DNA of 62,763 bases. Origin: Psammoneis japonica. Lineage: Eukaryota. Below are positions 5,190 through 59,147 of the stretch, one piece after another. Each line of letters opens with the position of its first letter. Within the stretch, counting starts at the first letter, position 1. The notes under the pieces were generated by a model. That model made no database searches and had not been told where the DNA came from. It saw nothing but the letters and a program-made list of their open reading frames with translations. The position numbers and the translations under genes are program-made. The stretch covers positions 848,979-911,741 of the forward strand of contig QPGO01000008.1 of NCBI GenBank assembly GCA_008632985.1. The letters run 5' to 3'.

Positions 5190-5320
5190 AATGTTTTTTT
5201 CTAAAAAGTATTAGACCTCTAATGTTTTTTATTGGGACCTCAGACCTCGAGGTAAAATGGTTTTTCAAAAAGCGTTGGAACTCCAATGGTTTTTGTCCAG
5301 ACCTCAGACCTCGAGGTCTG
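5190..5320 (+). repeat. Two copies of a small dispersed repeat (AGACCTCTAATG...AGACCTCAGACCTCG), also found inverted at 42668-42854
   Basis: Direct comparison with the reverse complement of 42668-42854. Confidence 0.8.
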
Positions 5321-7900
5321 ACGGAAAAGCTTACCCCGTGGCATTTGAAATGTGTGAGACCCGTCGCACTCTCTCTAGAGAGCTGGTGGCAAAGCGGGTG
5401 TAATTTTGGGGCACCCCCTGCCTCAAAAAAAAATTGCCACCAACAAATGGGCCTCCTGAGAGGCACGCATGTTTTGCTTGTAATTTTTCACACTGGTGCA
5501 AAAACAGACTCATCATCATCATCTGTGATGGCAACAATGTTGGCAGCCAACAATCAACCACGAACTTCAATCAACAAAAGATGTCAAAGCTTGTTGCTGG
5601 GAAGCTGCTGTGTGGCGCACTCAGCATGAAAGAAACAATGGCAAAAAATGGCGAGGTTGCCATCAACAGAAAACAAAACAAAGGCAAGTTCGTGTGCCAC
5701 CACAGACGAACAAGAAAAACATGCAACAAGGTCACTGAAGCCTTGCCCATGGATGCAATGGCAACACATGACATCAATCACATCATTTTGAATTGAGCAA
5801 ACTTGTCAGAACAATGGCTTGACACGCGCAAGGTTGCAGCACCACCAAACGCCATGGCATTTTGATGCAGTGTTGCAGCACCGCCAAATGCCATGGCATT
5901 TTGATGCAGTCACTTGACACTTGGCTGAGCACTCTCAACTCTCAACTTCACACGCAAATGAGTTGATTGAAGTCAGAGATGTGTGGAGTTGTCCCTGGTT
6001 GGATGTCTGCAACAAGTTTTTACATCCCCAAATTGCACTCTGAATCACACCCCAATTTCCGCAAGTGCAATGGTCCAAGTTGTTCACGGTGTCAGTTTTT
6101 GAATGCAAGGGTCGCTCACATTTTTCAGACCCGATCGCACACCAAAATGAGAACATCGTGCACCACAATTGAGGCACAACAGTGGCAGAAATCTTTGGCA
6201 TTTCTCCAAAACACAGCGGGATCTACAAACTTTTGATGTGCATCTGACCTTCAATGCACAAAGAGCATGAAACAAAATGAAAGTTTGCAGACAGACCACC
6301 TCTGTCACACAGACTTGTGGATGTTTTTCACTGAGCTGAAGTGCCATGATGAAATTCAGGAAAAATCATGCAAGTCATGAGCTGTTTGGCCAAATTTGAG
6401 CCAAAAATGCAGCAAACAATCCCCCCAGCACAGTTGTGTGAATGAGCAGGGTTCTCAAATTGCAAATGTGGAGTTCACAAACTTGCAAACATTTGTTGCC
6501 AAAGTGTGGATTTGTCATTTATGACGGACGTTTGTTGAGCCAGAATTTGTTCAGAAATTGTCTTGTTTGCAAACAGATTGTTTGCATGCTCACAGACACA
6601 AAATGTGAGCCATCATTTAAAACAGCTTGTGAAATTGCTTGGAAAGCAAAGAAACTCAGTTTTGCCAACGAAATGGAGAAGAAATGATGTCGAAGCATTT
6701 TGAGGGTGCCAACAAGTGACACAGCAGGATTTCATGTCAGCTCTTTGTGTTCAATGAAGAGCTGGAACACTGGTTCTTTGGGGTGCCCAAGGTGAGTTGA
6801 CTGTTGCAATTCCAAACTATGACAAAACATTGAAGTGTGCTTTTTTTCAATTTTCTCACTTGTGCTGCATTCTCTCTCTTGCACTGCAAAGAAGAAGCAA
6901 GAGCACTCAATTGATCTTTGCTTCTGTTGCAGCGGCAAGGTCTGACACTGACATCTGAACATGCAAGAGTGCAAGTGTGATGAATCAAGTGCCACGTTGT
7001 TGATCCACTGGTTTGTTGCTTGCTCCATTTGCCAGCTGTTGCACTGGTCAATTCTGCCTGCTGCACCAAGGAGAAAAGGTGAGAAGGCTTGTCATTTTTT
7101 GTTTCATCGCAGCACAAAGCTCTTGTGTCATTGTTGGGACAAGCAAGCAAGAATGTGAATGTTTGGTTTGCACATTTTGCTGTTGACTGAATCTTTCCTT
7201 TTCTTTGCTGCATGTTCTCGCTTTTGATTTGTTCACTCTTTGCACTCCAAAGAAAAATGGAAAGTTGGTTGGTTGTGGACATGACAAAAGGTTTGTCCTC
7301 AGTGATTGCCGCACCAATCCCACAATGCAACAAGTTGAGAGCATGGAGGAGCAAGGGGTGTGGTGTCATTTCCCAAAACCTCCACAGTGCTGTTGGAACT
7401 CCACCCCACCATTTCCACATGTTCTTTGTTGGATGAAATGCCGCTGTTGATGGCTGAGCACAGTTCCAAGAACACTTCTGCCAGGGAAGAAAAACTGCCA
7501 ACAGCAGGGATGGGTTCCTGGCCTGAACGCTTCACCACAGACAGTGGCAGATCTTGTGGAGCAGCAGGGAAAAGAGCAGAGACTTTGTTTTGTGCAACAA
7601 TTGATGCAAGAACAGAGGGCAATTTTTGTCCTCATCCTTTTCTTCTGGACATTGTGGTTGCTGCATGGCAACAACAATGTGGACAGAGCTCTTCTTCTCA
7701 TTGTGCATTTGTCCCTTCAATGGCTGCAAAAGAAGTGGGGCTGCCTGTCATTGTTGACAACTGGCTTTGATTCAAATGATTTCAGAGCCGCGGTTGCCTT
7801 GGCATGAACAGCAGCTTCTGCTGTGTTGTCATTTGTCATGTGATCCACAGAAATCAATGACCAAACTGCAACACGGTTCTTTCTTTTTGTTGTGGTTTTG
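5255..7900. other. TpA/CpG-depleted degenerate domain 2 (probable decayed TE, family not recognised)
   Basis: TA and CG are rare. Many overlapping, nearly Tyr-free ORFs. Contains a 39-bp tandem duplication at 5833-5910. Confidence 0.8.
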
Positions 7901-8256
7901 CACAGAAACGAAAGAATAAGTCGGATGCATGACTTGGTCCTGATTTGCTTTTAAGCGTGTCTGGGGCAGATCTGGAGTTGTCGGTTATCGGTCCTCTGTA
8001 GTTGGGGGTCAGGGTTCTACACTACTGTACTGTACCGTACCCAACTAAGGGCTCGAGGCTAAACGTGGCACTTCACCGTACTGGTGCCCACTTCTGTGTT
8101 TTAAGGGCACGAAGAAAGGACAGTGACGTACAGAAGCGCAAATAAAAATTGCTAAGGGAGTAGAGTTTCTATCATAGGGCGATGCTCGTGATGGTATCAG
8201 CGTTCAAATCAACAACAAAAACACAGAGATTACGAGGATGCAGTGTATGCTCAACG

Positions 8257-9939
8257 TTACCATCCACTGAAATCACCAAAAGATGTTTTCTTCGGAGGCG
8301 GTTTGAGGCGAGATGCAACTCGGATTTCTTCCGCTCCACCGAGAGTATCATTGCCATCCTGGTCGCCCTTTGTTTTGGAAGACGCTTTGGCCACGGCAAC
8401 GCTTAAATATTTTCCCACTTGGTTGCCCGAGTCTACCGCGACTGTCTTGGAAGCTGTGCCCATTGATGATGAAACCGCTTTACTTGTTCTCCTTCCTCCA
8501 AGGGCCGAACGTTTCTTCATCTCGGCCTCCTTTCGCTTCACTTCAGCCCTTTCTTTGATACGCTCACGTTCTATGTCTTGAGCTTCCTCGACGGGAGTGA
8601 CAAGAACTTCTGCCAACATTATTTTGATCTCTTCCGCAGGGCGATCTTTCTTGTCGGTAGGGATGCGTTCCATATTCTTGACAATGTCAATGCCTTGTAC
8701 AACTCTTCCAAAGACGGAATGCTTTCTATCCAAGTGCTGACAACTCTTGAATGTGATAAAGAATTGACGCTTGTTTGTATTTGCTCCGGCGTTCGCCATA
8801 GACAAAACCCCAGTACCTACGTGCTTGAGGCGATCGTCGAATTCATCGGCAAAAGCAGGACCCCATAAACTAGATTCTTCTTGCCCCTTGGGAGGTTTAC
8901 CTCCTTGTATCATAAAATTTGGGATGCTTCGATGAAACTTAGTGCCATTGTACTTTCCTGCCTCTGCCAAGCCCAAGAAATTCATGCAAGTCCGAGGAAC
9001 AATGTCACAATGTAACTCAATTCCCAAGTTCCCCAAGTTGGTTTTCAACGTGACGTAACCCTTCTTTTTGCGTTTCTTCATGGTAGCAAATAGAGAGGCG
9101 AGTATTTCTTCTTCGGTTGCTTCTCTTGCCATATTTTCATGGGTGATTTCCATCACAGTCGATGTGAGAGATCCAGAACACTTTCCTGATGTCAGTTGAC
9201 GCCCGTCCACTTCGTCTGTGTATATTTTCATCTTTTTCGCATCTGTTGCTGTAATGTCCGTGCTGCTGTCGCGTTTCTTTTTCTGCTTTTCCTTTGCAAT
9301 TGCATCCATGATTCGTCTTGAAGTGACAGTCTGACGCACATCATCGTTCCCGCTGTTGCTGTTGGCCTTGAGTTGACGAGCGTTCAACACGTGATGAAAG
9401 TTGTTTATGTCACGCAATTTGTTGTGCTCGTCGTTGTCAGGATCATTCAAGATCAGAACGTGTTTGCTCTTGTTGAATTTCAGACCTGAAGTCAAGTCTT
9501 CGTAACTCTTGGACTTGACGTTGAGTTCGTGATACGCTTCATACGAATAAACATTTGCTTCGTTTCCCGGTGGATCTTGTATAATCGCGACGATTTTGGT
9601 ATGTTCTGAGAAAGGTTTGGTTAACACGGGGCACTGCCATTCTCCTTCTTCATTCTTATCCATATTGAGTGTAATCAGATCACGAGTAGTCATTGGTTTT
9701 CCGGTGACGGGGTCAGTGCCATTCTTTAGTATAAACGGTAGGATGGCAGAGTTCTCAAAGACAATGCCGTTCCGAGTGCAGACAGGATTCTCGAACGGCA
9801 CAAGGGAAAGCGCACAGCAATTGAATGGCAGCCGTTTCTGAGTAGTAGACCCATGTCCTATACTTCCAGCTCGGAGAGCTTGGTTCGAACGATGTTCCCT
9901 CGCAGACTGATACTGTTTCTCTTTCTGTCGTTTCACCAT
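8257..9939 (-). CDS. PPIL2: U-box/RING cyclophilin-type peptidyl-prolyl isomerase (CYP60/CYP65-like)
   Basis: N-terminal RLPFNCCALSLVPFENPV and DPVTG, CPVLTKPF. Cyclophilin core FHRSIPNFMIQGG, LSMANAG, QFFITF, HLDRKHSVFGRVV. ATG at 9939 (MVKRQKEKQY). Confidence 0.9.
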   Translation of the reverse strand: MVKRQKEKQYQSAREHRSNQALRAGSIGHGSTTQKRLPFNCCALSLVPFENPVCTRNGIVFENSAILPFILKNGTDPVTGKPMTTRDLITLNMDKNEEGEWQCPVLTKPFSEHTKIVAIIQDPPGNEANVYSYEAYHELNVKSKSYEDLTSGLKFNKSKHVLILNDPDNDEHNKLRDINNFHHVLNARQLKANSNSGNDDVRQTVTSRRIMDAIAKEKQKKKRDSSTDITATDAKKMKIYTDEVDGRQLTSGKCSGSLTSTVMEITHENMAREATEEEILASLFATMKKRKKKGYVTLKTNLGNLGIELHCDIVPRTCMNFLGLAEAGKYNGTKFHRSIPNFMIQGGKPPKGQEESSLWGPAFADEFDDRLKHVGTGVLSMANAGANTNKRQFFITFKSCQHLDRKHSVFGRVVQGIDIVKNMERIPTDKKDRPAEEIKIMLAEVLVTPVEEAQDIERERIKERAEVKRKEAEMKKRSALGGRRTSKAVSSSMGTASKTVAVDSGNQVGKYLSVAVAKASSKTKGDQDGNDTLGGAEEIRVASRLKPPPKKTSFGDFSGW

Positions 9940-10743
9940 CGTCGCGTCGCTGCTCGCTGCATACCGGTAAGTTACGACCGCCACCAACCGCAGACATCTG
10001 AAATCTGAAACTGATCGATGATCGATGATCGATGCATACGGTACATGCGATGCGAAATGTTCAGTCTGTCTGGCTTGCGCGCGAAATCACCGTCGGACGC
10101 AAATAACACACGACAATGATGTGGTGACAATCGAAAAACAATTTGATGTTTCAAATGGCGGCAAGCCAAACCAGAGTGACTGTGATCATCTTGTTCATTG
10201 TCTTTGAGCCACAAGGGCTTGTTGGTGTGGCAAAAAGGTTGCTCCAGCAGCAGGGCAGGGTGCAAGTCATTGTCTTGCAGCACTCTTGCAACAAGATTGG
10301 CTCCAGTCAAATGCGGGCCTGACAGGGATTGGCCAAGTCTGTTTCTCCTTTCATCTGCCATGTTGGTTTGATGCATCAACTCACCTTGGGGGTCACTGCA
10401 AAATGACAAAAGCTGTCTTTCAGAGAAGTGCTCCAGTGTTTCCAGCGGGGGAGGCACTCTCTCTCTTCGCCGTCAGCACATCAGAGTCAGCGGGCACACT
10501 CTTGTTTTGTTTGTGTGCAAGCAGATTCACATTGGCCACTCACACAAAGCAACCAAGTGGGGGCAAGTGTGATGAGGGGGGCACTCTTTTGTCTGACAGC
10601 TGCTGATGGCACTCAAGGACAGCCTTTGTGCAAGAGGTTGTGCAGCCAGTGCTTTGTCATGCTGCGCTTTTTCATTTTCCACTCTTGCTCAATTTTCTCC
10701 ATTCTCACTGACAGCACCAAGGCTGAGTTTTTATGCTGTTCTG

Positions 10744-10768
10744 CTCTCTCTCTCTCTCTCTCTCTCTC
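10744..10768. repeat. (CT)n microsatellite
   Basis: Seen directly. Confidence 0.95.
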
Positions 10769-11060
10769 AAATGAACAACAAAATTGGTGAAGCTGATTTT
10801 CCATCAAATGTGACAAACAAAGAACAAAGAAGAGCAGCTGAGGCAGGGCTGCCAGCTCGGATGTTTGTCCAACTGTTTCGACGAATGGCAGGCACAACAA
10901 CGTTGGCCAAAGTCATGCGTGAGACTTTCATGGTGGCTCCATCAGTGGCCGGCTGTTGTTGTTTGCGTGGTTGAGGTTGTCGTGTTAAAAAGATCGAGTG
11001 GTGGGGGAGGACAGGCGAGTTGACTTGATCGAATGGTTTTTCTAAATCAATTCACTGCAC

Positions 11061-11113
<53 letters not shown>
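11061..11113. repeat. (TCTG)n(CT)n compound microsatellite
   Basis: Seen directly. It abuts the 3' end of the minus-strand RT relic. Confidence 0.95.
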
Positions 11114-12800
11114 AGTGGCCACCCTGTTTGTAATCCAGCAAGACAAAACTGGGGAGCCATTGGAGGTGTGAAGGATGCAGCATGAAAGGAGGTTGCCAAG
11201 GTTGCGTGACCGATTGCAGCAAACGATCATGCGGTCTAAGCCAATGCGCTGTCGGTTGTGATTTCGAATGTTGGCAAGTGCCTGGGAGCAGGGTCGAGAG
11301 GTCATCGTTCCTTTCCATGTCTTTTGTGGTTTGCTTGATGGTGGGTTGTTTGGATGGTGTGGGACATGTGGGAAGATGGGAGGATTGGTTGGGGGCTCGT
11401 CCGCAGTTGTTTCATTGCCAAAGAAATGGTTGCATGCCTTTTGGAAGATGGGTTGGAGCTTGCCAGGCTTGCAGCCTCGAGCAAGCAGTCAATGGCAAAG
11501 AAGTTTCATCTTTGTTTTTTGCATTGGTGGGGTCTGAGCAAAGCTTCTTGAAGTGGAAGAGCATGCCCACAATTGGGTGGGTGAGTGCTCCAGGCGGGTG
11601 AGCTGAATGTGGAGGGATGCACAGACATAAATTCATTTCTTTTTTGTAAAGAGTGGTGTGCAGGTGGGAGCCTTGGAGTGCAATGGTGAGGTCCACAAAG
11701 TTGGCTTGGTGGGCTCTTGGACTCGTGACCCAGTTGATGTTGCAGTCATTCATTCTGGAGGCAAATGCATTCCAGCAAGCGGCGTCGGAGGTTGACTCAG
11801 TGATTTGCCAAATGCCAAAGATGTCATTGACAAATTGTCTGCAGAAAACAAGGTTTGTGCCAAACTCCTCCAGGAGAGTGGCTTCATGTAAAGCACAAAC
11901 GAGCGTGGCACATGGCAGGGCCGGTGGTGTGCCCATTGCGGTGCCATTGCGTTGGAGCCATGCAGTGTCGCTGAAAGCAAAGACATTGTGTTTCATTGCA
12001 ATGCGGAGGGCTTCAACAAGGGCTTCTGCTGGCACATCTTGGAATTCATTCTCATGTTGTTGCAGGTGGGCCACAATTGCTTGAAGGGCTTTGTTCGTTG
12101 GGATGTTTGAGCAGTGGGACTCGGCATCAGAGGTGAAAAGAAGGCAGTTTGGTGGTGCCGCCATTTGGACTAATTCATTCTTGAGGTCCAACAAGCTTTT
12201 TGAGCAAGATGGTTGCTTGCGTGTGACTTTTTGCAGCTTGTTGTCTGCCCAGATGCCTGAGCCATAGAGCAGGAGGCTGCCACTTGTGGAGACGATGGGT
12301 CAGGATTTCAGCGGTGGGGGCTTGTGCACCTTTGGAGTGAGGCAGAAGACAGGGAATGGGGTTTCGTCAGTCTGAACATGATGTTTGAGATGCTTGCATT
12401 CCATCGGGGTTAGATCATCTTTGCATTTTTTGATCCAGTCAGCAAGAAGTTTTCTGATGTGGTGTTCATGCACGGCTTTGAAGGCGCTCAGGTGTTGGTG
12501 CGTGGTCACGTTGTTGAGGTGGTCATGAAACGCCATCTTGATGTGCTCAGTTTTTTCTGTGATGGCAGGGCCCAGGTTCTTGTCACATTGGGTGACAACA
12601 AAGTCATCTTGTTGGCACAGGCAGACAAGTGTGCAGTGTTGGTGAGGGAGTGGGTTGGTTCTGCCTCTGTGTTTGGCAAAGAGCTTGGCAAGTCTCTTCT
12701 TGAAAGAGGCACAAGAATGTTCTGGGTCTGCTCAATTGGCAACCACTTGGTGGCTCTCAGTTTTTTCGCTGCTGTGCTGCCTGTTGTGTGAGTGGGTTTT
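11113..12800 (-). mobile_element. Decayed Penelope-like element (PLE) reverse transcriptase
   Basis: Ordered PLE-RT motifs: CDKNLGP, LTPKVHKPPPLKS*PIVS, SDAESHCSNIP, QRNGTAMGTPPA, FCRQFVNDIFGIW, NFVDLTI, LYKKEMNLCLCIPPHSAHPPG, RMIVCCNRSRNLGNLLS. Interrupted by stops and frameshifts. Confidence 0.85.
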
Positions 12801-15473
12801 GTCAATGTTCCAGGTTGGCTCCCTTTGTGAGAGTGGTGAGCCAGGTTGCATTTTGTTTCTTTTGCAAGTGGGTGGTGAGCAGCAAGGTTCAGGGGGGCAG
12901 CAACTCTTGCCTCAAAAAGAGGCACCTTGGTGGTGCTCTCATGCCCAAGGACAGCATGCGTGCACAACATGTGCACCTGTGTTTTTCAGACAGCTGTTGA
13001 TGGCTCAGCTCGTGGAAATGTGAATTGTGCAAGCCTTGATGCTGCAGAAATTGGTGCAACAAGCTGATTTCACATTCTTCTTGGGCAGACCAAGTTGCTG
13101 CCAGCATTTTCTGCAGATGACCACCAAGTCAGGTGATCAGCGGTGGCATTCAGCCCCCAGACTTTTTGTTGCTCACACCTGCAGCTTGGAATGGGAACAC
13201 CACAGCCAGCATGTGCTTGCACTCCAACAACTCCAAAAATTGCAAACAGCCAAATCAACAAGACATGGAGCTGCACAGCAATCACAGGTCAAGTGCATGA
13301 AGGGGGCAGGACTCATGCTTGCTGCAAATGGAGGTGGGGGTTGCAGTTGTCTTGCACAGCAGGTTGTGAAATTGGATGTGAAGCCATGGACCCACTGCCA
13401 AGAAAGCATGAGCAAAGCAAAGTGCACAGCTCCAAAGTCTCTGGTCATGCAATGACATGAAAAACACACGGGCACCCTGCACATTGTGGGAGAAGCTGGC
13501 TGTGGCCAAGGAGGGTGCATCACTCCTTCTTTTGCTCAGATTGTTGTGCATGATCATCTTCCACACAAGAATGGGGGAAAAATCAATTGTTCCAGCAACA
13601 TTGCACACTGTCCAGAGAAAAAAAACAGATCTAAATTTTTGGTGCTGTTGCTCTGCAGCCAGCCAGGCTGGTGGTGCTGGCTGACCCGCACTCCCAGTGC
13701 ACTGCTTCAGCATGGCAGGAGCTTGCATGGGACCAGCCAAAGCCAGCACTGCCAGAAGGTGACACCCCACCAAAACAACTAAAAAGGAACAACTTGTGTG
13801 AGGAATTTGTTGCGTGCTTGTTGGCAACAGCCACAAAGGGCACACCACAACTGCAAAAAATAATTGCACAACTCAGATGGGTTTTTAAAAGAGTCCACAA
13901 AATGCTTTGGGACATGCTGCCAAAACTGGCACAAACTGACACTTCAAGGCCACTCAGTTTTGCACCAAGGAGAACCACAACAACGTGAGAAGTTCACCAC
14001 TCAAAGCAGCAAGCAGAAGAAAGATTGGACTTGGATGCATTGAGCTGGGAGCCTTGAAGGCAAGATGAGCAGGTCATTGGGGAAAAACATTTGTTGCACA
14101 CAGAAACAATGTTGGACCTTGTGCAGAAAAGCTGGCGAACACAGCAAATGGATGACAATCAAATGGCACAGAAGGACAACTCATGTTCATGCTTGCAAGG
14201 GCCACAACAGAGGCAGCACTTTCACTCTGAAGAGCAAAGGACTTGATCAAACAATGAAGAGAATGGTGGGTGGCATTGAAGACCAGCTGGTGTGGACAGA
14301 AGCAGCTTTGAGATGTGACAACTGGACCATCAATGGCATCACACAGAAACAACACCAGATCTTTTGCAAAAAAGCCAATGAGAGCAGCAAATTGATGACA
14401 ATCAAATGATGCTAAAGGATGACTCCCCTTCTCACTGGAAAGGGCCACAACGGAGGCAGCAGGAGTGCTTTTGCCCCAAAGAGTGAAGGACTTGACTGAA
14501 CAGCAGAGAAAAGAAGCAGCATTGAAAACTGGCTGGCAAGGGTGAAAGCAGTGCAGAGATGTGACATGCAGATCATCAGCAGTTTCTGCTGAACCACAAG
14601 GAATTTGCACTGGAACCTGTGCAGAAAATGTTTCTGACAAGAGAAAATTGTGAGAAACAACAGCCAGCACGCGAGTCGCGAGGCTTTGACACTCGTCATT
14701 TTCCACTGAAAAACATTGCGCATCATGCTGCAACAAGGTTGTGCCATTGGCAAATGTGGACAAAACAATGGGCTTGTTGGAGCCAACATGACACTGTCTG
14801 AGAAGGCAACATCAGCATGAGAAGTTGCACAGAAACCCACGCAGATGCCAAGGTGTGCAGCTGACGTCAAAAAGCCCCTTCTCTGCCCAGAGCAACAGCA
14901 GCAATGGGCCAACCCACACACCTTCAGCACACTGCACACTGCTGCAAAAAGTGTGACAACAATTGGCCTGCCTTGGTGCCACTCTGTGGTTCCCACCCAA
15001 AGTGACCAGCAATGGTCCTTGCACCCTGATTGTCTTCCACATGAGGCAGTTGAGAATCCCCTTGGCCCCATTTCTTCCCATCATCCAGGTTTCAGTGCAA
15101 TCATCTCACAACAAATCTTTTCCCCCATTGGCCTTTGCACAAAATATACAACCAAACAGGATTCTCTTTGGCACCGCAAAAAACCAAATCCGAAAGAAGA
15201 CAAACCACTCTTTGCGTCGTGAGTGCGTTCCTGGTAGCGCAGGCTAGCTAGCTCGCTGCTGCTAGAGTAGGGAGGCTACAGCAGGGCAAACGACTGGGAT
15301 CCTTTTAGTTTTCTCTGGCTTCTTCCTCATTGCAACATATGATCAGCAAAAGCATGAAGAAAGTAACTTTAATAAACCCTCGCTAAACTACCATTTTCTC
15401 CATCTGCGACACTGGCGATTCCATCATTTCGTTTCAGTCATCTGCTTCCACTTCGGAGTATCTTCCCCGCCCT

Positions 15474-31989: not shown

Positions 31990-34900
31990 TCAGTGTTGCA
32001 ATGGTGTTTGGGCACTTTGCTATGGATGGTTGGCTTTCTTGCAGCCTGACTGGTGAGGTTCGAGGCTGAAAGTGTTGTTGCACTTTCAGAGATTGGGAAT
32101 TGAAGAAACCTCTGATTAGGTGCCTTGTGTCCATTGCATTGAACTGCAAAAAAGGAGGTGCCACACCATGAAAATCCCTCACTCAGCTGTCCCTCTGGGG
32201 AGCATCATTGTGCAGAAGTCCAAGGCTCAAAACTGTGACAGGGTTTTTCCTCCTGTGCCTGTCTCTTGAAAGAAACCATGGAGTGTGCAAGTGCAGAAAT
32301 GGCCCGTCAAGATCAAGGATTCAACAGTGGCCCGCCTGAGGTCCTTTGTTCCATTGCATGCATTTTGCATGATTTGTAAGAGGATGAATGTAAAGCCAGT
32401 GCTCACTTGAAAATCTTTTGGACTCTGGAGATCATGGGGCATTGACAGAGCCGTTTTTGCTGCATCTTAAACATTTCCAAACCCCACATGCTGCTGGTCT
32501 CCAGCCACCTTTGGAGGGACAAGTTTGGTTGCATGCCTGTGCTGGCTTGACCACACATTTCAGTGTGTGTGCCAATGTGGAGCTGGCCTGCTGCCAAACC
32601 ACCAAACATGCATCACACGGTTGATGCCCCCAGCAGGTGTGGCGGTGCACTTGTTGGAAAAAACTTTTCAGTGTCATCGTGACCCTGCACATGAACATGT
32701 GTGTGTCATGTGATCACAAGTGTGGTGCAAGCAAGCAGTGCACTCATGAAGCCTTTGAAAAGTCTCTGTCTTGCCACCATCTGAATCATCATTTGGCAGC
32801 TGTGTGCACATGCTGTTTTGTTTATCTTGCAAGACACTGACAAAATTCTTTCACCTGCTGGCAAAGCACAATGCAGAGTTGAAGTCCTGGCAAAATGCAC
32901 AACTGTCTCTAAGTTTCTCTGGCTGCTCATTGATTGTGCCCAGTGTCAAATTCTTTTCATTTGGAGCAGTTTAGAAATTGCAAAAAATGGCCACATTTGG
33001 GCTTTTCCAACGATTTGAACAGGGCTTTCTCAGCCATCTCATTCCCACAAAACCACAGCTGAGCACTGCTTTGACTGCTCTCTAACCTGGAAGCTCCTTC
33101 TTTAACTGGCTGCTTCAGCATGAGCTTTTGATGTGCATTCTCACCCATGCACTGCCTGCCATTGATTTGGAGATTTGCGTGAGACATGAAGTGCAGTGAC
33201 TGCCCCTTGTCTCTTTGTTGGCATGTTTTTGTGCTGCACATGTCAGGACAACTGCAGTGGTTGAGGGTTGTGGTTGGCAACAGAAGATTGCCACTTTGCT
33301 CTTTTTGGGTGCATTTTTGCCTCTGTCCAATTCTTCAAAAACCAAAGCCCATGCTAAAAGAACACTGCATGATCCGATGCTGGGGGACAAGAAATGTGTG
33401 CAAAAGTGCAGAGCTCTTTGCTTGTTGTGTGCATGTGTGATGTGTCCCAACAAGGCAGTGGTGGCAAGTCAGCTGGGGCTCTAGAGAGAGCTTGGACAAC
33501 ACACTGTGATGGGGCATCCAATGTCCAACCTGTGACATGTGTGCATGAAAACTGACTGTGACCAAGAACTGACCAGCAACAGAAACCACGCTGGGCAGCA
33601 AGCACATCACTCTTGCGTTCAGCTGGACCCAATCACAGAGAACAACTTTGCAGCACATTCAACTGAGGTTGGGGCAGTGTTGAAATCAGAGTCAGAATTG
33701 TGGTGTGAAGGAGCACCCCAGCTGTGCATTTTCAAAACATGATTGATGCAGCCTCTGCAATTGACAGCAACTGAGTCATCATTCTGAAGAACAACGCCCA
33801 CAGGCCATTGAACTCAGTGCAAAGTCCAAGACACTTGAAGGGAGGCAAGTTTTGTTCTCAAGCTGCCAAGTGGCCTTGCCAATGCAACCACAAACAATGA
33901 CAGCAATGTCAGTGCCATCATCAGTTGGCACATCAAGCTCAAAAACAAGTCACGTTCCTCTGTCAGATGAGCAAGTTGACAAGACTTGAAATGTTGCTCA
34001 TGAGCAAAAGTGATTTTAAAAGTCAGGATCTCATCATCAAAAACCTGACATGGAGCAAATTCTGCATCAAAAACCAAGGGCACCTGTTGTTTGTTGATGA
34101 AGATGATGCTCACACCTGCAAGCTTGTTCCACACTGCTTTAAGGGTGAAAAACAATTGAAAGCAGGGTTGCCCCTTGCAGTGTCTGAAACATGCACTTGG
34201 TCTGTCAATGTGCAAGCAGACAGGCCAACAAGACCATGGGTCCAATCCTTGGGTGGGTGCTTGATGACACATGCGACCATCTTTTCTTGGCAAAAAGATT
34301 GATGGAAGAAATGAACACAAGAACCATCATTTTACATGGCTCTGTTGGAAAAGGTGCACCTTGCTCAATTTGTTGCACAGTGCACCAAAATTCTTGACCT
34401 TGCCAGCAGCAACAGCAATCAGGGCAGATTTTTGATCTCGTGAAGGTGCAGCATTCTTTGTCCTGAGACAGTGACACATTTGCAGGGCCAAAAATGAACA
34501 AGAAGATTGGCATCAATGATTGTTGCATGGGCAGCATTCTCAACAGCAAGGTGTGTGTTGGCTCTTCAACAGGACAACACATTGACCAGACACACCAGCG
34601 TCAGAGGGACAAATGTCACAGCAACTTGTTGAAAGGGTCATGGACTTTGGGGCTCCTTGCAGATCTTGTTGCCTTGGTCCACAAGCACACATTTGTTTCA
34701 TCTAAATTGGAAGGGTGTCAAACAGAGTCATCTTGAGGGGGCCAAACACCCATCTCCACAGTGCTGTTGGACAACATCTGGGGTGCTTGGATTCACTTGA
34801 GAAGTTGCAGTCTCTTCTGCAGGTGCTGGAAGAGAGCAAAACTCATCTTGGAAAGGAGCGCACTTGCATGCAAAGAGAGACAGATTGTCACCAGGGTTGT

Positions 34901-37900
34901 TCCCGCCACAGGCAAACCCTGGCTGCCTCCAGCTTTAATGAAACACCAAATCAGGTGCACACATCATGTCCCACAAGACAAGGCTTGCTGCACAGCTGTG
35001 AGACATGCCCATGTCAGAAGACCTTGAGGTGAGAAGGTGTCTTTGCAGATCAGGAGTGGGTCATGGAGAAAAAAGCCTTGGTGCTCCATTCCATGTGATG
35101 AGTTGACAACAAACCATGATCAGCAAGCATGAGACATTCAGTGTCATTTTCAAAATGCAGGTTTCCAGAGGAGCAGTGAGTCAAGGATGAGTTTCCAAGA
35201 ATCACCTTCCCCATTTGTTGCATCAAAATGCCTTGGAGTTGCCAACTGTCTTCCAAGCATTGGTCACAGCAGCTGTCTGAAACTGCTCTGGACTTGGCAA
35301 ATGATCAGCAGCTGATGCTTTCCAAAGTCATTGGGAGTGGGAATTGCCGGATCAGATGTTGCTTGAACCATGACCTTGCAAAGATTGGCCCAGTTCTTGA
35401 GATGAGCTGGATGTCCTTGTGAAGGGCTTGCAAAGAGAGGAGCTTTCTTGACAAGCACTTCAACGGTGCAAGAGGTTGTGTCTTCCATGAGCACAGCTCT
35501 TGGCATGATGAGATCTTCAGCAATCTTGTGACAGATGGCAGCAACAGAACGTGGGGGTGCAAAACCATCCAGAACATCACCTTCAAGATCAGAGGCACTG
35601 CATTAGAACAAAGGGTGCTCAGGTGGATGTGGGCATCAGCAGAGTGATTGTCTTGCTGAGGACCACATTGTGGGGGACGTCTTTGGAAGTGAGACTGTCG
35701 AAGAAAGTTACGTAGAATTTGCACTAAAACAGTCTGTCAATCAGTGCGATTGGGGCGTTTGGGAACGCTGGACAGATCCCACGTGTTTTCTTGTGCATGC
35801 AAAATTGCACTGGAAATGCCCCCAAACACACTGGCGATCAGACCGCCTTGTCAATCTCACTTCTAAAGACGCCCCCCAATTGGTTGATGCTGTCTTGACC
35901 AAATTGACCTTAATGTGTCACGTTTTTGGCCATGTTTGGTGCACGAGAAAAAATCAATTTCTGCACAGAACTCTGGTGTGTTGGTCACTGTGACCACAAA
36001 CCAAGTTGCAGGAACAAACATGCACCACCAGTGCTGTCAATTGATGTTCAAATGTGCTTGAAATGGTGAAGAGAGACAGCACAAAATGCTGCCCCCACAA
36101 CCTTGCAGATTGGTGGTGGCAATGGTGGGACAACCTCACAATGCCCAGGACACCACAATGGTGGTGCCATGTGCCAGATGTGAGAGAAAGTGAGAAGGAA
36201 AATCATTGGATCTCTCAATCTGCCTGTGCCAATGGGTCTGTCTGCATCACATGGGTGACACAAGTGCGCGGCTGCCAATTTGCAACACCAGAAGTTTCTT
36301 GCATGGGAAGAAAAAGTGCGCATTTCAAACAAAGAATTTTTGTCTACCCAGCTGTGCATGTGCCACCAAAGAAAGGAGCAGTTCTAAAGCTTTTTAGAGC
36401 TGAAGCTTGGTTGTCCAAGAACAAAGTGAGGTGGGCCAGTTCACAAGAAAGGACTTTTGCCTTCTGCAAGAGAAAGCTGAAAGAAGAAGAAGCTGAAAAA
36501 AAAAGACAGTGTGCCACAGAAACATTGAAACCACTGAGAGACAGCTTGGGAAGAGCCAGCCAGATGTTGACAGAGAGCATCAGCTCTGTCAGAGCACACA
36601 TTCTTTGGCACGCAAAACACCACAAATCTGTGGTGTGGACTTCTCCCACACAACACCGATGAGCAAAACTTTGCTTTTGATTGGTTGCAAGACACACAAT
36701 CCAAGAAATCCCAACTTTAAAAAAAGTGGCACCAGAGCTCCTTCACAGGATCAGAGCAATTGTGAACAAGAGTTTTGGAGAAACCAGTGGCTGCTTTGGA
36801 GCCATCCCCTTTGCCACTTTGGCTTGGTTCCTCTGTTCCTCTCAATGAGCTCTTTTGGGAACACATGAAGTGCTTGCACATTGTCTTTTGTGGCAAAAAC
36901 CCCTGGATTTGTTTCTGCAAGAATGTGTGGCCATCAGCTCATCAGGCAGTTGAGAAAAGAACAACCACAGGGGCTGGCAGCACTGCAGAAATGGTGTGGT
37001 GCCTTGGAATCATGGTGTTCACCAATGTGGCAAAACACCATGGCTGTGTTGACATTTGTGTGTCTTTGTCAAGTCCAACCCCTGCATCACCCAGACATTG
37101 TTGTTGACAGAAATGCATGCCATGTCATGGCACCTTGATTGTCATCAGCAACTTCTTGTTTTCACATCTGCTGCATGAAGAGCTGCTCTCAACAAAGCCG
37201 CAACTTTGCAGGTAATCTTCGCCCTCCTTTTGCACCACAGCAGCTCCCATTTGCATGATTCCTCTGCTCTTCAGCCATCAGGACCCAATTTGTCAACACT
37301 GGAATTCATCTGTGACGGGTCTTTTTTCTTCATTGCAAGTGGGATGACTGTTTTCCAGCAATGCTCCATGACAGGATTTGAACAAGATTTTAGTTTGTCA
37401 CACACAATTGTGTGTGCTCTCAGCTCCGCGCGCGTTGCGCGATGTAGTTTGCTTTTGAGCCACAGAGCTCACAAGAACAATGACAGCAGCACCGACATCA
37501 CGACACCAGTCTTTCGGCTCCTGTGACGGTCTCTGCACGGAGACTCATCTGCTGTTTAGACAGCAGTGAGGAGTTGTTGTTTTCTTCCACCCAGTCATCT
37601 TCATTTTCTGTCACTCCAGGAGACATGCAGACAAAAGAGAAGTGCCTGATGTGGTTGACTTTGAGCACAACCCAAGCATGCTTTCCCACCAAACACTTTG
37701 ATCTCAGAATTCAAAACCTTGGCCCAAAGGGGCCACATGGCAGCTGCACTGGGGCACAACATCACAGCAACTTTGTGCGAAGCTGTCAAGGATTGCCTTT
37801 TCAAGGACTGCCCCTGATCTGCATCAGATGATGTGTTGTTTGAAAAATTTGGCAGATGATGATGAACAAAGCAATGCTGGGTCATGCAAGGGATCAGGTG

Positions 37901-40250
37901 CTGTGAAAGAGAAGGGGTTTGCCAACATGGAGGAGGTTGGCAAAAAGCTTGCAATTTCCACCATCACTTTTGAGTGTCAGCAACATGTTGTTGAGACTGC
38001 TTTGTGATGCAGGGACTCAGCATCTGAAACAGACCAATTTGGAGACCAACATGCACAGGTTCATGGCAAGGAAGAGTCCAGTCATTTTGCTCTGAACATT
38101 TTTTCAGCAAGAAGATGACGTGCTTCTTTGGCTTTCCTCATCCTCCCTCTCTTCGCACACACAGAATTTGGATTTAATCTTTCATCAGAGTCAGCTGCAT
38201 TTCTTCAACAGTTGTCAAACTGCTGTCATCCAAGGCTTTCAAAGAAACTTTGCATCACCAGCAGATCACCAATTGCCACCCCATGCTGTCAAGCCTCCTG
38301 ACTGCAGCACAGCCTGGCTCATCAAAGAAACTGTACCAGCAATTAAAAGCACTGCCAGCACAATTTGTTGGAGGGGGTGGCAGTTGAGTTTGGACATGAG
38401 GAGACATTTTGCTGTGCACTCAGAGCAAAACAGAAAGACACCCAAACTGCCTGGGCACAGACAACAAACCAGCACTGAATGTCAAGAGCTTGAAAATGTG
38501 ATGGTGGTCAAATTGTGCATTTCTTCTTGTGCGCTGAATCTGCCAATTTGGAAATGCCTCGTCTGGGTGGAGCAAGGTGTTCTGCTTTGACATGGGTTTC
38601 AAGTGCATGGCTGCCAAGTCTGGACACCCAAAGTTCCTGGTGTGGAAAGAAAAAAATGTGTGCAGAAAGAACTCATGTCTGGCTTTTCTCTTGTTCATTG
38701 CCTGGGCAGCACAAGGTGTTGTGTTTTGACATGGGTTTCAAGAGTGTGGGGTTGCCATGAAGCCCCAACACAAAAAGTGTCTGGCGTGGAAAGAAAACAT
38801 TGCTTGGGTTAATTTTTCTCTGCCCAGCCATTCATTTCCTCTGGAGGAGCTGACTTGCCCAACAAAACAAAGGTGGGGCCAGCTCAGAAGAAACATTTCT
38901 GGCATGCAGCATGAGAGCTGAAAGAAATTGTCAAAAAGAAAAAAGATGCTCCATGGAAACATCGATGCCACACTGAGAAATGGCTTTGGAGCTGACCAGA
39001 CTTTGACAGGGTGCATCAGAGTGGAAGCTCTGTCAAAAAGCATTCTTTGGCATGCAAAATGGCAGACTTCCCTGCAGTTGTGTTGGCACTGATGCACAGA
39101 GTTTGCTTTTGCTTGGCTGCAAGGTGCAACCAGAGAATCCCTGATTTTCAATGGACCACCAAGCTCTTTTGGGTTTGGCACAAGCACAAACCCCATGGCC
39201 CCCAGTTTGACCAGTCACTTTGGAGCCATGCCCTCTGCCACTTTGGTTTGGCACCTCTGCCCTTCTTGACAAAAGCTCTTTGAAAGATGCACACAAAAGA
39301 AGCACGCGGTGTCTTGGGGAGGGGGTGCACAAGTGTGTGACAGCAGCAGCACAAACAACTGCTGGGTTGGCAAGTTTTTGAATGCCGTGAAAGAAAATGC
39401 AAGCACCAGTGCCAAGCAGACCATTGCACTGTCATTTCATGACAGAGAACCCTGGATTTAGCTCTGCAAGAATGCACGGCAATCAGCTCAGCAAGAAGCA
39501 GAGAGCAACAAATTGCAAGAAAAAGAGCATGCTGCAAAAACAGTGTGAGATGAATTAGAAGCATGTGGTGTGTGCCAGTGTGGTGACAATGCCTGTGCTG
39601 ACATGTCTTGTGTCTCTTTGTCAGCCCCCACAGCACAGAAGCAAGTTTCTCAAAGAGACTCTTGCTGCAGGAGCGCAAAAGTTCTTGGCATGACAGACAA
39701 GCACATGTCTGAGCCGTGTGGAAATTGTCAACAAAAGTACACATGATTGTGGCATCTTGATTGTTGAAAGCAACCACATGAAGAATTGCTTGTGCACAAA
39801 GCTGCGACTTTGCATGGGGCAGTGGTGCCAATCTCCTTTTGCATCGTGGTGTGATCCCCACCACTGGCACATCTCATCCACTCTTGAGGTGACACCAGCA
39901 TCCAATCCTTCATTGCTGAAATTTGGCTGCATTGGGTTGTCCTTGGCTTCATCAAAGCACACAGAAATTTCTTGCACTGGTGTGAGGACCTCAAAGACCA
40001 TTCTCCAGTGACACTTGTGGATGCAAAAAAGGGCTAGAAATGCCTGTTGGCACCACAGTTGACTTTTGAGTGCAACCTGAGCATCAGACGACCTCCACCA
40101 AAGTGGCCATGGCAACTGTGCTTTCCTTGGGATGGAGCTGCCAAAGACTGCCTTCCAAGGACTGCCCCTTTGCATTGAGGATGATGAACAAAGCAATGCC
40201 AGATTGTGTGGAGGATCAGGTGCTGTGGAAGCAGGGGCTTGCCATGACGG
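31990..40250. other. TpA/CpG-depleted degenerate domain 4 (about 8.3 kb)
   Basis: TA and CG are rare throughout except for a small island near 35670-35880. Dozens of spurious, nearly Tyr-free ORFs. Confidence 0.85.
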
Positions 40251-42620: not shown

Positions 42621-42667
42621 GGCGCTCGTCTTCTTTCCGCAAAGAAGGTTGGGATGAGAATGTAAGT

Positions 42668-42854
42668 CGCGAGGTCTGAGGTCTAGATAAAAACCATTAG
42701 AGGTCTAATACATTTTTTGAAAAACCATTAGACCTCGCAAGACCTCGAAGCTTTTGTTCTCATCGTGGTTCGCGAGGTCTGAGGTCTAGATAAAAACCAT
42801 TAGAGGTCTTATGCTTTTTTTGAAAAAACCATTAGACCTCGCAAGACCTCGAAG
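42668..42854. repeat. Two tandem units of about 83 bp (103-bp period), each with an internal inverted repeat
   Basis: CGCGAGGTCTGAGGTCTAGATAAAAACCATTAGAGGTC...CCATTAGACCTCGCAAGACCTCGAAG at 42668 and 42771. Confidence 0.92.
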
Positions 42855-43270
42855 TTTCTGGTCGCCAAACGCCCGGGACTGCTTGGAGTCGTGTTTCAAA
42901 GCTTGCTTGCACTCTCCATCGTGAGCCGAGGGACAAAGCTCTGGCTGTTGCGTTGGTGCCATTCTGGTGTTGTTGGTTGTCTTCATTTTGCTTTTGTGCG
43001 GTGTCTCTGTCGATCCAAGAAAATTCGTGCTGTATGCATGCATGATGTGATTTTTTTCTCCTCCGTCTGTCTGTGTGTCTGTCCACTTTCGCGCCAAAAG
43101 ACGATCATTTGAAAATCAATTTCTCAGTACCGGCTCCACGAGGATTCTACGTACGTGCCAAACCGTGAGATTTGTAGTGCGACCGCCGGCTACCGGCGAC
43201 AGAAAACAAATCCGCCATCAGCCATCAGCAATACCGGTACCGGTAGATATCGATCAGATTGCGAGCAACC

Positions 43271-48961: not shown

Positions 48962-49119
48962 AATTTTTACTTACTTAACGGGGTACTTTTTTGAGTCATC
49001 ACACATTGCCCTTTGTCATTTTAATCAAGTTAGTCAAACACAGCTTTTTAAACCGCCGCATCGCAGTGCGCACGGAGAAGACGGATCTTGTGGCACAAAT
49101 GTCGCCAGTCTAACGCAGA

Positions 49120-50480
49120 AAATGTGATGGCATCCCAAGCAGAAAGAATTGCTGTTGTCAGCTGTTGCTTGCTTCCTGTCTCTCTGTTGTTGTCTCTTCT
49201 TTTGCAAGTGTTCTGAGTTGACAATGCAGGGGGCCGGCTCTCTGAGCTCTGGCAGCTCCTGGGAGCTGGCCAGCACTGCTGCTGCTCTTGGCTGGCGCCT
49301 CACAAGCAGTGGCTGTGCACAATGATGTGCACTCTTGAGCCACCACCTGGTGCCAAGACTGTGCCAAGTTGGCTTGCTTCTCTCTGTGTGGTTTCTTGAC
49401 TTTGCCCCCATGCCATCCTCATCAAAGCAAGCCTTTGTTTTCTCACCCTGCTTTTGCCGCTGCTTGTCTTGTGCTGGCACACACTGGAGATCATTTCCAG
49501 GCACCTCAGATGCTGCGTGCTTGTGAGCTTCTGCTCTTTTCATCTTTTCTTTTTGTTCTTGTTGCTCTGGCTGCTTGCTGCTCCAACACACAGCAGAGCT
49601 GCTTTTTGCTGCTGACACTGCTGCTCTTGCCCGTGACCTTGTTGGTGCCACAGCAAAGCACTGTGCTGGAAGCTCTGCACCAAACACCAAAGCTGCAAAG
49701 ACAATTGCCCAGCTCTGCAAAGAGGTCATGGAGCACATGCTTGTGCTCTCATTTGACAGAAGCAGCGCACAGCAGCAGAGAGATATCTTCAGCAAGCTCC
49801 GGTGCTTTCGCACATGCTCGGAGATTCGCTGACAAGCACTGGAGCAGTTTTTTGCAAGGCACAGCTCTCAATGACAACTGGGTTACACCCAAAAGTGGTG
49901 TTGAAAACACTTTTCAGGGAGCTGCTGCTTGGTCATGGACAACACACAGAGATTCTTGGCTGGCCTGCCGGGGCAGCAATGTGAGCTTTTGCTGGGTTGT
50001 GCTGCAAAGCATCTCACAACTGCTTGCTTTCAGCTCCCAAAACAGAGTCTCACAATTTCCCCTTTTGGCATTCTCTTCACCCCTTCCACCCAGTTCTTCA
50101 AGGCACAGCACATGCCGCTGTCCTCTGTGCAGGCTCTTGTCCCCTTTGGCGGCTTCTCTCTTCTTGCTTCCTCCTCGTGTTGCTCTGCCTCCTCTTGTGG
50201 CCTCCTCCACTGGTGCTGGTGTGGCTGGACACTTTGTTTCTGCACAAGCTCCTTGTCTGCATGTTGCATTTTGCTTCACACGTTGTCCCTTGTCCTTGAG
50301 TGCAGCTGCCTTTGATGATGGTTGCTTGTGCAGTTGTTGTCAGTTCTCCCCACTTTAACACACGGGTCACTTTTGTGACATGACGACTCTCGCTTCGCTC
50401 GAGTCGAGTTAATCAAAACCTGCTGCCCACACCAGGTGAAAAAATGCCAGTTCATCTTCCCATCTGTCTTGCTTCCCATG
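49120..50480. other. TpA/CpG-depleted degenerate domain 5
   Basis: Only a few TA in about 1.3 kb. The 329-aa and 259-aa ORFs here contain no Tyr. Confidence 0.85.
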
Positions 50481-50510
50481 CTGTAGTCTACTCTCTATTA
50501 TGTGGACAAA

Positions 50511-58106: not shown

Positions 58107-59055
58107 CGACGGTGTCCCACTTTACGGCGAGATATCTCAATGATACTTACACCGATTTCCCCGTTTCTTTTTTCAGTATTGGGATAAATTGTACAATGCA
58201 TCCTACTAGGTTGGTGCCATTGTACATTATTGAGAATTATGGATTTCTGTTTTGTTTGAAACCTCGCAGCAATTTCAAATTTTGGAAAAGCGCGCACGAC
58301 GGTGTCCCACTTTACGGCGTGATATCTCAACGATACTTACACCGATTTCCCTGTTTCTTTTTTCAGTATTGGGATACATTGTACAATTCATCCTACTAGG
58401 TTGGTCCCATTGTGAATTATTGAGAATTATGGATTTCTGTTTTGTTTGAAACCTCGCAGCAATTTCAAATTTGGAAAAGCGCGCACGACGGTGTTCCACT
58501 TTACGGCGTGATATCTCAACGATACTTACACCGATTTCCCCGTTTCTTTTTTCAGTATTGGGATTCATTGTACAATTCATCCTACTAGGTTGGTCCCATT
58601 GTGAATTATTGAGAATTATGGATTTCTGTTTTGTGTGCAACCTCGCAGCAATTTCAAATTTGGAAAAGCGCGCACGACGGTGTTCCACTTTACGGCGTGA
58701 TATCTCAACGATACTTACACCGATTTCCCCGTTTCTTTTTTCAGTATTGGGATTCATTGTACAATTCATCCTACTAGGTTGGTCCCATTGTGAATTATTG
58801 AGAATTATGGATTTCTGTTTTGTGTGCAACCTCGCAGCAATTTCAAATTTGGAAAAGCGCGCACGACGGTGTTCCACTTTACGGCGTGATATCTCAACGA
58901 TACTTACACCGATTTCCCCGTTTCTTTTTTCAGTATTGGGATTCATTGTACAATTCATCCTACTAGGTTGGTCCCATTGTGAATTATTGAGAATTATGGA
59001 TTTCTGTTTTGTGTGCAACCTCGCAGCAATTTCAAATTTGGAAAAGCGCGCACGA
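58107..59055. repeat. Tandem array of five 189-190-bp units inside the MULE
   Basis: ACGGTG anchors at 58109, 58299, 58488, 58677 and 58866, ending at 59055. Units 3-5 are essentially identical. Confidence 0.97.
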
Positions 59056-59147
59056 AGGATGCAGGTAAGTACCATTCGATTCTCCGTGGTGCTACACCAA
59101 TATTCTTACTTCTTTGCACCATTTTAACAAGAAGTTGACAACGTCCC

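Follow-up and report, generated by a model that had tools for sequence, protein, structure and literature searches.

What kind of process could leave a retroelement with almost none of its tyrosine codons? We addressed this question in a 62,763-nucleotide (nt) stretch of the genome of the diatom Psammoneis japonica (contig QPGO01000008.1, positions 848,979 to 911,741; hereafter the window, whose own numbering is used throughout). On its minus strand, at 11120-12731, lies the 5′-truncated remnant of the second open reading frame (ORF2), encoding a reverse transcriptase (RT), of a Penelope-like element (PLE), recognized by tblastn, protein relatives, profile homology and its observed/expected (o/e) TA and CG ratios. 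The minus strand of 11113-12800 forms one long frame interrupted by TGA codons, and the original prediction, made from the letters alone, took it for a Penelope-like RT inactivated by systematic Tyr→Cys/His and CpG-type changes. Here we find that the changes run in one direction, from TA and CG to TG or CA, that they affect both strands, and that they continue beyond the element through sharply bounded islands of DNA. We consider it probable that a targeted process acting on the DNA in place was responsible.

Residue changes at conserved columns have a direction and a context

Among 678 protein relatives (query residues 24-462 of the minus-strand reading), the best 120 were aligned. Two window segments were aligned separately, with X at stops, and each residue was traced back to its codon and to the bases on either side. 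We scored the 143 columns with at least 90% conservation among the 120 best relatives. The window copy agrees with the family at 112 of these and differs at 31, and the differences are far from evenly spread over residue types. Tyr is altered at all 9 conserved Tyr columns (7 Cys, 2 His) versus 22 of 134 columns of other residues (Fisher p = 3.8e-7), which bears out the systematic Tyr→Cys/His change originally proposed. Arg is altered at 5 of 7 columns (to S, stop, Q, H and C), and residues besides Tyr and Arg at 17 of 127 (p = 0.0013 for the comparison with Arg). Lowering the conservation threshold to 50% gives 17 Tyr columns, of which 16 are altered (11 Cys, 4 His, 1 Val), and the whole aligned remnant retains just two Tyr codons. 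The numbers of Tyr→Cys (11) and Tyr→His (4) do not amount to a significant strand bias within the element (p = 0.12); because both occur, both strands were affected. Nor are Cys and His native to these positions in intact members: at the nine most conserved Tyr columns they occur in only 0-2 of 109-120 intact sequences.

Sorting the 31 changes by the single step needed to regain the family residue revealed their context. Restoration takes a TA←TG/CA step in 12 cases, a CG←TG/CA step in 10 and either a CG-type step or a transversion in 1; the remainder comprise 1 other transition, 4 transversions and 3 changes needing two or more steps. The context-type share is thus 23 of 31 (74%), compared with 114 of 1,975 (5.8%; 51 TA-type and 63 CG-type) when 50 related loci whose ORF2 is uninterrupted were put through the same script (p = 1e-21), totals that retain 7 loci that aligned poorly (70-98 changes at 98-125 columns). 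Measured against opportunity, 23 of 197 possible moves in TG/CA context were used versus 1 of 232 other transitions, a roughly 25-fold excess (p = 1e-7). The direction of the bias is readable because the protein is conserved, which dinucleotide counts alone cannot give. Protein conservation does polarize both mutation classes, as had been claimed, and the comparison with the family shows TA and CG to be the ancestral states and TG/CA the products in the remnant. The TA→TG/CA class comprises Tyr→Cys/His, Leu→Pro, Ile→Thr and Ile→Val; the CG→TG/CA class comprises Arg→stop/Gln/His/Cys together with Asp→Asn after C, Glu→Lys, Gly→Ser, Pro→Leu and Ser→Leu.

The catalytic box (RT motif C) illustrates both classes at once. 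The original prediction placed a degraded motif, FCRQFVND, at 11821-11850, and it is present there in the minus-strand codons 11846-11823. Against the family's YRRFIDD, four residues of the consensus are each one TA- or CG-type step away, at Tyr (93% conserved), Arg (98%), Ile (95%) and Asp (99%). With the last of these changes the xxDD box, now FVND, loses its first catalytic Asp. The other motifs cited in the prediction are likewise present in the window copy, with ancestral forms that the prediction gave closely but inexactly. For the catalytic box, FYRRFVDD had been proposed and the family has (L/F)YRRFIDD; for NLCLCIPPHSAHP, the proposed NLYLYIPPHS.HP corresponds to NL(H/Y)LYIPPHSAHP in the family, with mostly H at the first Cys of NLCLC; and SHCSNIP corresponds to a family SMYTNIP, with M before Tyr, in place of SLYTNIP. 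KS*PIVS carries, as stated, a TGA (12300-12302, minus strand) on a 98%-conserved Arg, a CG←TG step, in a motif that is KTRPIVS in the family where KSRPIVS had been given. A second in-frame TGA, in frame -3 at 11489-11491 on the minus strand, falls on the family's conserved Arg in the stretch F-Y-x-R-L-x-x-R-G-Y.

TA and CG loss extends beyond the element in bounded islands

The remnant has a TA o/e of 0.08 and a CG o/e of 0.39, compared with medians of 0.70 and 0.91 among 79 related loci kept from a metagenome scan (TA o/e range 0.40-0.94), an estimated loss of ~88% of TA and ~57% of CG. This depletion is shared by five sharply bounded islands of the window, at 1-1000, ~5450-8000, 10105-15144, ~32000-40050 and ~49000-50500, all of which show both TA and CG depletion. 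Inside them (18,143 bp) the o/e ratios are 0.06 for TA, 0.22 for CG, 1.74 for TG and 1.79 for CA at a GC content of 0.481, and outside (44,620 bp) they are 0.57, 0.97, 1.17 and 1.19 at 0.480. The island that holds the element (10105-15144) contains 16 TA in 5,040 bp (o/e 0.05; CG 0.25, TG 1.62, CA 1.91), and its edges adjoin normal genes. Its start lies no more than ~20 bp from the long ORF of a PPIL2-like gene, for which all organism-named matches are diatoms (48-55% identity). Intergenic DNA elsewhere in the window is normal in TA, with 17-30 per 500 bp.

Within the element-bearing island, depletion ignores the element's borders. The single-copy stretches 10000-10695 and 12784-13479 are as free of TA as the element, and single-copy 12785-13650 contains 1 TA (o/e 0.02). 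The two classes differ in degree between blocks. A high-copy unit (10771-11054) has CG o/e 0.76 at TA o/e 0.10, the PLE remnant (11119-12731) has 0.39 at 0.08, and the other blocks of 10105-15144 have CG o/e 0.0-0.24 at TA o/e 0.00-0.05. Because blocks differ in CG and not in TA, TA loss was faster than CG loss and uncoupled from it in degree.

Of the 78 TA dinucleotides that survive in islands, 55% have A as the next base, compared with 22% outside, and 47% have T as the preceding base, compared with 23% outside. The commonest word around them is TTAA (18 of 78), which TG/CA contexts do not predict. This suggests that TTA/TAA sites are relatively refractory to the mutator. Stop words are reshaped accordingly: counting both strands, TAA, TAG and TGA number 81, 39 and 835 inside islands and 765, 738 and 1,635 outside. 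Because TAA and TAG are nearly gone, islands are full of long, overlapping but non-genic ORFs in every frame, and 77 long ORFs from the five islands gave no Pfam match. For the four islands other than that holding the element, we infer a mobile or foreign origin.

The TG:CA ratio in 500-bp bins was also seen to flip every ~1.5-2 kb, with TG exceeding CA at 11001-13000 and CA exceeding TG at 13001-15000. Such flips could reflect element orientation or strand-biased mutation.

Read data point to mutation of the DNA in place

One public run contains 90% of the sampled words of 10000-15200; two further runs hold next to nothing of the stretch. Contigs assembled from the first run at unit depth ~65 are identical to the window over 11856-12345 and differ once over 12358-13727. 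The RT remnant is covered at a depth of 93-868, so several copies exist at ≥85% identity. We listed 40 of the 229 differences between the window copy and the other copies in the same run, and these 40 comprise 24 TG/CA/CG-context changes, 9 other transitions and 7 transversions. Five sites among them are adjacent TG-versus-CA pairs, in which the window copy and the others differ. By eye, a low-depth contig end from a sister run still has TA at five positions that read TG or CA in the high-copy unit of the window. Because single-copy DNA is depleted, both strands are affected and copies differ in TG versus CA, these data point to in situ mutation of DNA that struck both strands and crossed element borders, with RNA editing a poor fit.

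The copy is truncated and frameshifted

The remnant is in frame -2 from 12731 to ~11510, with one in-frame TGA (12302-12300), and then in frame -3 from ~11509 to 11120. With six relatives as queries, tblastn matched 12728-11117 to the relatives' residues from ~93 to near the C terminus, the frame changing from -2 to -3 near 11510-11530. Three-frame reading together with this frame change places a 1-nt frameshift on the minus strand at 11505-11522, a zone that includes an A6 run on the element strand (11515-11520). In a profile of 120 relatives, homology begins only at position ~99 of 638, and upstream of 12731 neither ORF1 (sought with a profile of 25 ORF1 sequences) nor the first ~98 ORF2-profile positions were found; the copy is therefore 5′-truncated and without ORF1. 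With the truncation and the frameshift it was probably dead on arrival, and reverting the substitutions alone would not give one ORF. Directly 3′ of the ORF2 end, the sequence has a (GA)n(GACA)n tail (11055-11118, minus strand), and the window holds only one other dinucleotide microsatellite tract of 16 nt or longer. A local Pfam scan of the window copy returned no match.

An island-targeted mutator is the probable explanation

We judge it probable that a dead, endonuclease-less PLE copy underwent island-targeted TpA→TpG/CpA hypermutation in situ, together with slower CpG decay. In outline, a PLE copy would have inserted into a gene-flanked transposon island of the diatom genome, and the island DNA would then have been altered. 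A near-saturating TpA→TpG/CpA process (A:T→G:C) would turn TAY Tyr codons into TGY Cys or CAY His codons. Alongside it, a slower CpG→TpG/CpA process would act, most simply 5-methylcytosine deamination in methylated transposon DNA; transposon methylation is known in four diatoms (PMC9998398). The TpA process may be an enzymatic, chromatin- or repeat-targeted DNA mutator like that of Bigelowiella natans. The route may be through an adenine deaminase with TpA as its target (A→I→G) or through a thymine modification giving T→C, and targeting of A and of T are inseparable because TpA is palindromic. What the window displays directly is the direction of change, its context specificity, its restriction to islands, its action on both strands and on non-element DNA, and the unequal saturation of the two classes.

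Several points weigh against this explanation. A single window reveals no enzyme, base modification or ongoing mutation rate. Some 1.5 kb of the island has no second copy at ≥85% identity, so repeat homology may not be the targeting signal. The island edges abut genes, where purifying selection could sharpen boundaries that no mutator had set, and the sequence does not tell methylation-driven CpG loss from CpG loss by the same mutator. The run that confirms the stretch is probably the assembly's source sample, with its platform unrecorded, and is thus not fully independent. The truncation and frameshift also mean that the point changes may not be what killed the copy: the inactivation originally proposed is borne out by the lost Asp and the two TGA codons on Arg, although the copy may already have been dead when they arose.

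The best-surviving alternative, which we regard as unlikely, assigns both classes to one mutator of dual specificity, either an ADAT2/TadA-like deaminase or a RID-like DNMT4. Such an enzyme would account for the presence of both classes in all five islands, and precedents can be named: the B. natans preprint cites ADAT2-type enzymes that deaminate both A and C (10.64898/2026.01.13.699255), and RID-related DNMT4 of unknown function is described as widespread in diatoms (PMC9998398). However, the degree of the two classes is uncoupled between blocks, the mutated base would lie 3′ in TpA (if adenine is targeted) but 5′ in CpG, and methylation-driven decay is a sufficient known cause of CpG loss.

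Untargeted neutral decay, in which a genome-wide bias against TA and CG was completed in old DNA and selection on genes set the edges, is more doubtful. It draws on a background TA o/e that is already low (0.57) and on the position of islands in the spaces between genes, but other intergenic stretches retain their 17-30 TA per 500 bp and non-context transitions are nearly absent (1 versus 23). The block in which CG o/e is still 0.76 when TA o/e is already 0.10 indicates fast TA loss, not great age.

Two further explanations seem very improbable. An ADAR-like A→I hyperediting of the element's transcript before reverse transcription is conceivable for an element that replicates via RNA, and ADAR-type enzymes prefer U before the edited A (quoted in bioRxiv 10.64898/2026.01.13.699255). 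Editing of this kind is hard to reconcile with non-element, single-copy island DNA that is equally or more TA-free (1 TA in 12785-13650), with effects on both strands (11 Tyr→Cys, 4 Tyr→His), with ~90% conversion, which far exceeds partial editing, or with the alternative product, TG versus CA, in other copies at five sites. The same low standing falls to a sequencing or assembly artefact, in which modified bases in silenced DNA would be miscalled as TG or CA. Its appeal is that the CG and TA changes are near-complete and lie in regions expected to carry modification. Yet contigs of ~65 depth match with 0-1 differences over 490 and 1,370 bp, other copies in the same run differ at some sites only, and the copy has the transversions, frameshift and truncation typical of real decay.

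We rejected GC-biased gene conversion, which is not TpA-specific and sits poorly with an island GC equal to background, a native foreign composition, given that conserved catalytic residues are affected, and a variant genetic code, given that adjoining genes read normally.

Comparison with known mutators

In Neurospora and other fungi, repeat-induced point mutation (RIP) converts C to T mainly at CpA, creating TpA. The islands resemble RIP in their dense, region-limited transitions that destroy transposon coding capacity, but the direction is opposite: TpA is erased (TA o/e 0.06, TG 1.74, CA 1.79). Dependence on duplication, a further feature of RIP, was not seen here, and single-copy parts of the island are mutated too.

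The closest parallel is B. natans, in which mutation-accumulation lines show that integrated giant-virus and virophage DNA is hypermutated from A:T to G:C at TpA only, and coding sequences low in TpA are enriched in RT and transposase domains (Mettrop et al., 10.64898/2026.01.13.699255). That preprint reads the process as genome defence and proposes an adenine deaminase. Both systems show almost only TpA→TpG/CpA change, represented here by 12 TA-type steps versus 1 non-context transition, with a CG class in addition. Both are also confined to discrete regions, here five islands, one of them with a retroelement and multi-copy repeats. The differences are several: the host there is a rhizarian alga and here a diatom; the targets described there are viral integrations that are partly depleted (Rho TpA 0.45 for nucleocytoplasmic large DNA viruses, NCLDV) versus an o/e of 0.05 here; and the preprint's main text, which contains none of the terms CpG, context, flanking and trinucleotide, describes neither the CpG decay nor the sparing of TTA/TAA that we observe. 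Our literature search found no report of such a process in diatoms, and the 2026 B. natans preprint was the only description it returned. Stramenopile deaminase families of unknown role have been listed (PMC3239186) and are a lead only.

Whether diatoms possess a dedicated, island-targeted TpA→TpG/CpA mutator that spares TTA/TAA, belonging to the same pathway as that of B. natans, we regard as evenly balanced. If they do, an A:T→G:C 'mirror-image RIP' defence would be ancestral to, or widespread in, the stramenopile-alveolate-rhizarian (SAR) supergroup, and the mutator would be much faster than methylation-driven CpG decay and would strip TAA and TAG stops from silenced DNA. If enzymatic, the process would be a new kind of eukaryotic genome defence and a possible natural source of context-specific A-to-G (or T-to-C) activity on DNA. 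The odd composition of the islands becomes evidence for a directional, near-saturating A:T→G:C process on both strands. For annotation, the consequences are that mutated elements are missed by Pfam-based methods and that islands, which retain almost only TGA stops, carry long spurious ORFs.

The element belongs to a putative endonuclease-less Penelope-like lineage

The family to which the remnant belongs is common in aquatic metagenomes, where it bears DUF-type labels only. Its best relatives, of ~640 amino acids (aa), are 49-50% identical to the remnant and carry the Pfam labels PF28514 (DUF8422) and PF26215 (HTH_animal), with names taken via Atlas. RVT_1 (PF00078) is found on 13-63% of members in some neighbouring Atlas clusters and on 2 of 5 longer relatives. 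The family consensus YRRFIDD, with both Asp invariant, has the xxDD box of an RT core. When the structural matches of an intact relative were ranked by VIA re-alignment, the 11 best were telomerase catalytic subunits; Foldseek's own order had put viral RNA-dependent RNA polymerases first, at a root-mean-square deviation above 20 Å. A profile search of PDB sequences with the family gave no significant match.

An N-terminal GxKF/Y and a DKG-type motif upstream of the RT core are PLE hallmarks, and for the latter the variants DKA, DKT and DK have been reported (PMC8557442). The relatives' conserved LLGLGLKF (G36, L37, L39, K40 and F41 at ≥90% in A2) fits GxKF/Y as a pattern match only, and the region is absent from the window copy because of its 5′ truncation. 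CDKNLGPA, present both in the family and in the window copy, has DK followed by N and may be the counterpart of the DKG motif of reference PLEs.

Full-length related loci have an ORF1 of ~470 aa overlapping an ORF2 of ~800 aa. Across intact relatives (L002, L003, L005, L009, L011, L013 and others), ORF1 was seen to span ~430-590 aa and to overlap ORF2 by several hundred bases. Nine ORF1 and four ORF2 sequences of relatives, and four relative proteins, matched no Pfam domain, including GIY-YIG, of which no pattern was present either in the three plus-strand frames of the 79 loci. None of the 5 longer relatives bears a GIY-YIG label, which is weak evidence. The relatives terminate a few residues beyond a ...GPPVSSY motif, and in 8 of the 79 loci the end is a microsatellite, (TG)n, (GTT)n or (ATG)n. 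Rfam hammerhead models had no hit at E ≤ 1 in 9800-15300 of the window, where the scan ran on a heavily mutated copy, nor at E ≤ 0.1 in 17 related loci, and the same RNA-family scans gave a chance-level miRNA match only. Protist PLE hammerheads have been described as non-canonical variants (PMC4209133). Neither a telomeric repeat nor a TA-mutated derivative of one occurs in the 62.7-kb window.

Among known PLEs, the Athena and Coprina groups have a telomerase-like RT without an endonuclease and are reported from protists; a hammerhead variant in the diatom Thalassiosira oceanica is among the reports of endonuclease-less (EN-) PLE type (PMC8557442, PMC4209133). In PLEs ORF1 is optional, and a frameshift may lie between it and the RT (PMC8557442 Fig. 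1). Our family is like Athena and Coprina in its telomerase-like RT and the absence of an endonuclease domain. In contrast to these groups, for which reverse-complement telomeric repeats, hammerheads and telomere sites are described (PMC8557442, PMC4209133), it ends in microsatellites, and the window copy lies between ordinary genes. Naiad and Chlamys share with it an association with microsatellites (there an insertion bias to (CA)n, (C)n and (TA)n) and the GxKF and DK-type motifs, and canonical hammerheads are absent from Naiad and Chlamys in the account of PMC8557442. They carry an N-terminal GIY-YIG and a CxC motif (PMC8557442), whereas no GIY-YIG was found in the relatives tested here. 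Those relatives also have no C-terminal GIY-YIG, unlike canonical endonuclease-bearing (EN+) Penelope/Poseidon, Neptune and Nematis. To judge by its motifs, the family appears to share traits of EN- PLEs and of the microsatellite-seeking Naiad and Chlamys, and we have filed it as a putative endonuclease-less, microsatellite-tailed Penelope-like lineage. The label given in the original prediction thus holds in the broad sense and does not extend to canonical Penelope.

Other features of the window

Next to the element lies a short high-copy repeat, delimited by read depth and composition (10744-11054, minus strand), with its own (GA)n tail, (CT)n on the plus strand at 10744-10767. Its body, 10771-11054, reaches a depth of 1,088-2,722 versus ~65 for single-copy DNA and has on either side a (CT)n/(TC)n tract, the two being the only such tracts of the window. 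Unrelated in sequence to the PLE 3′ end, the repeat may be a non-autonomous element using a like (GA)n tail.

Farther right in the same island, a direct repeat of ~225 bp with 69% identity occurs at 14097-14566, in the multi-copy part. At the edge of the second island, 5190-5313 shows inverted similarity (84-89%) to a tandem pair of ~100-bp units at 42667-42863. Outside the islands, a tandem array at 58107-59058 has a period of ~190 bp and copies that are 93-98% identical, and it overlaps the long ORFs 58275-59105 (minus strand) and 58450-59127 (plus strand).

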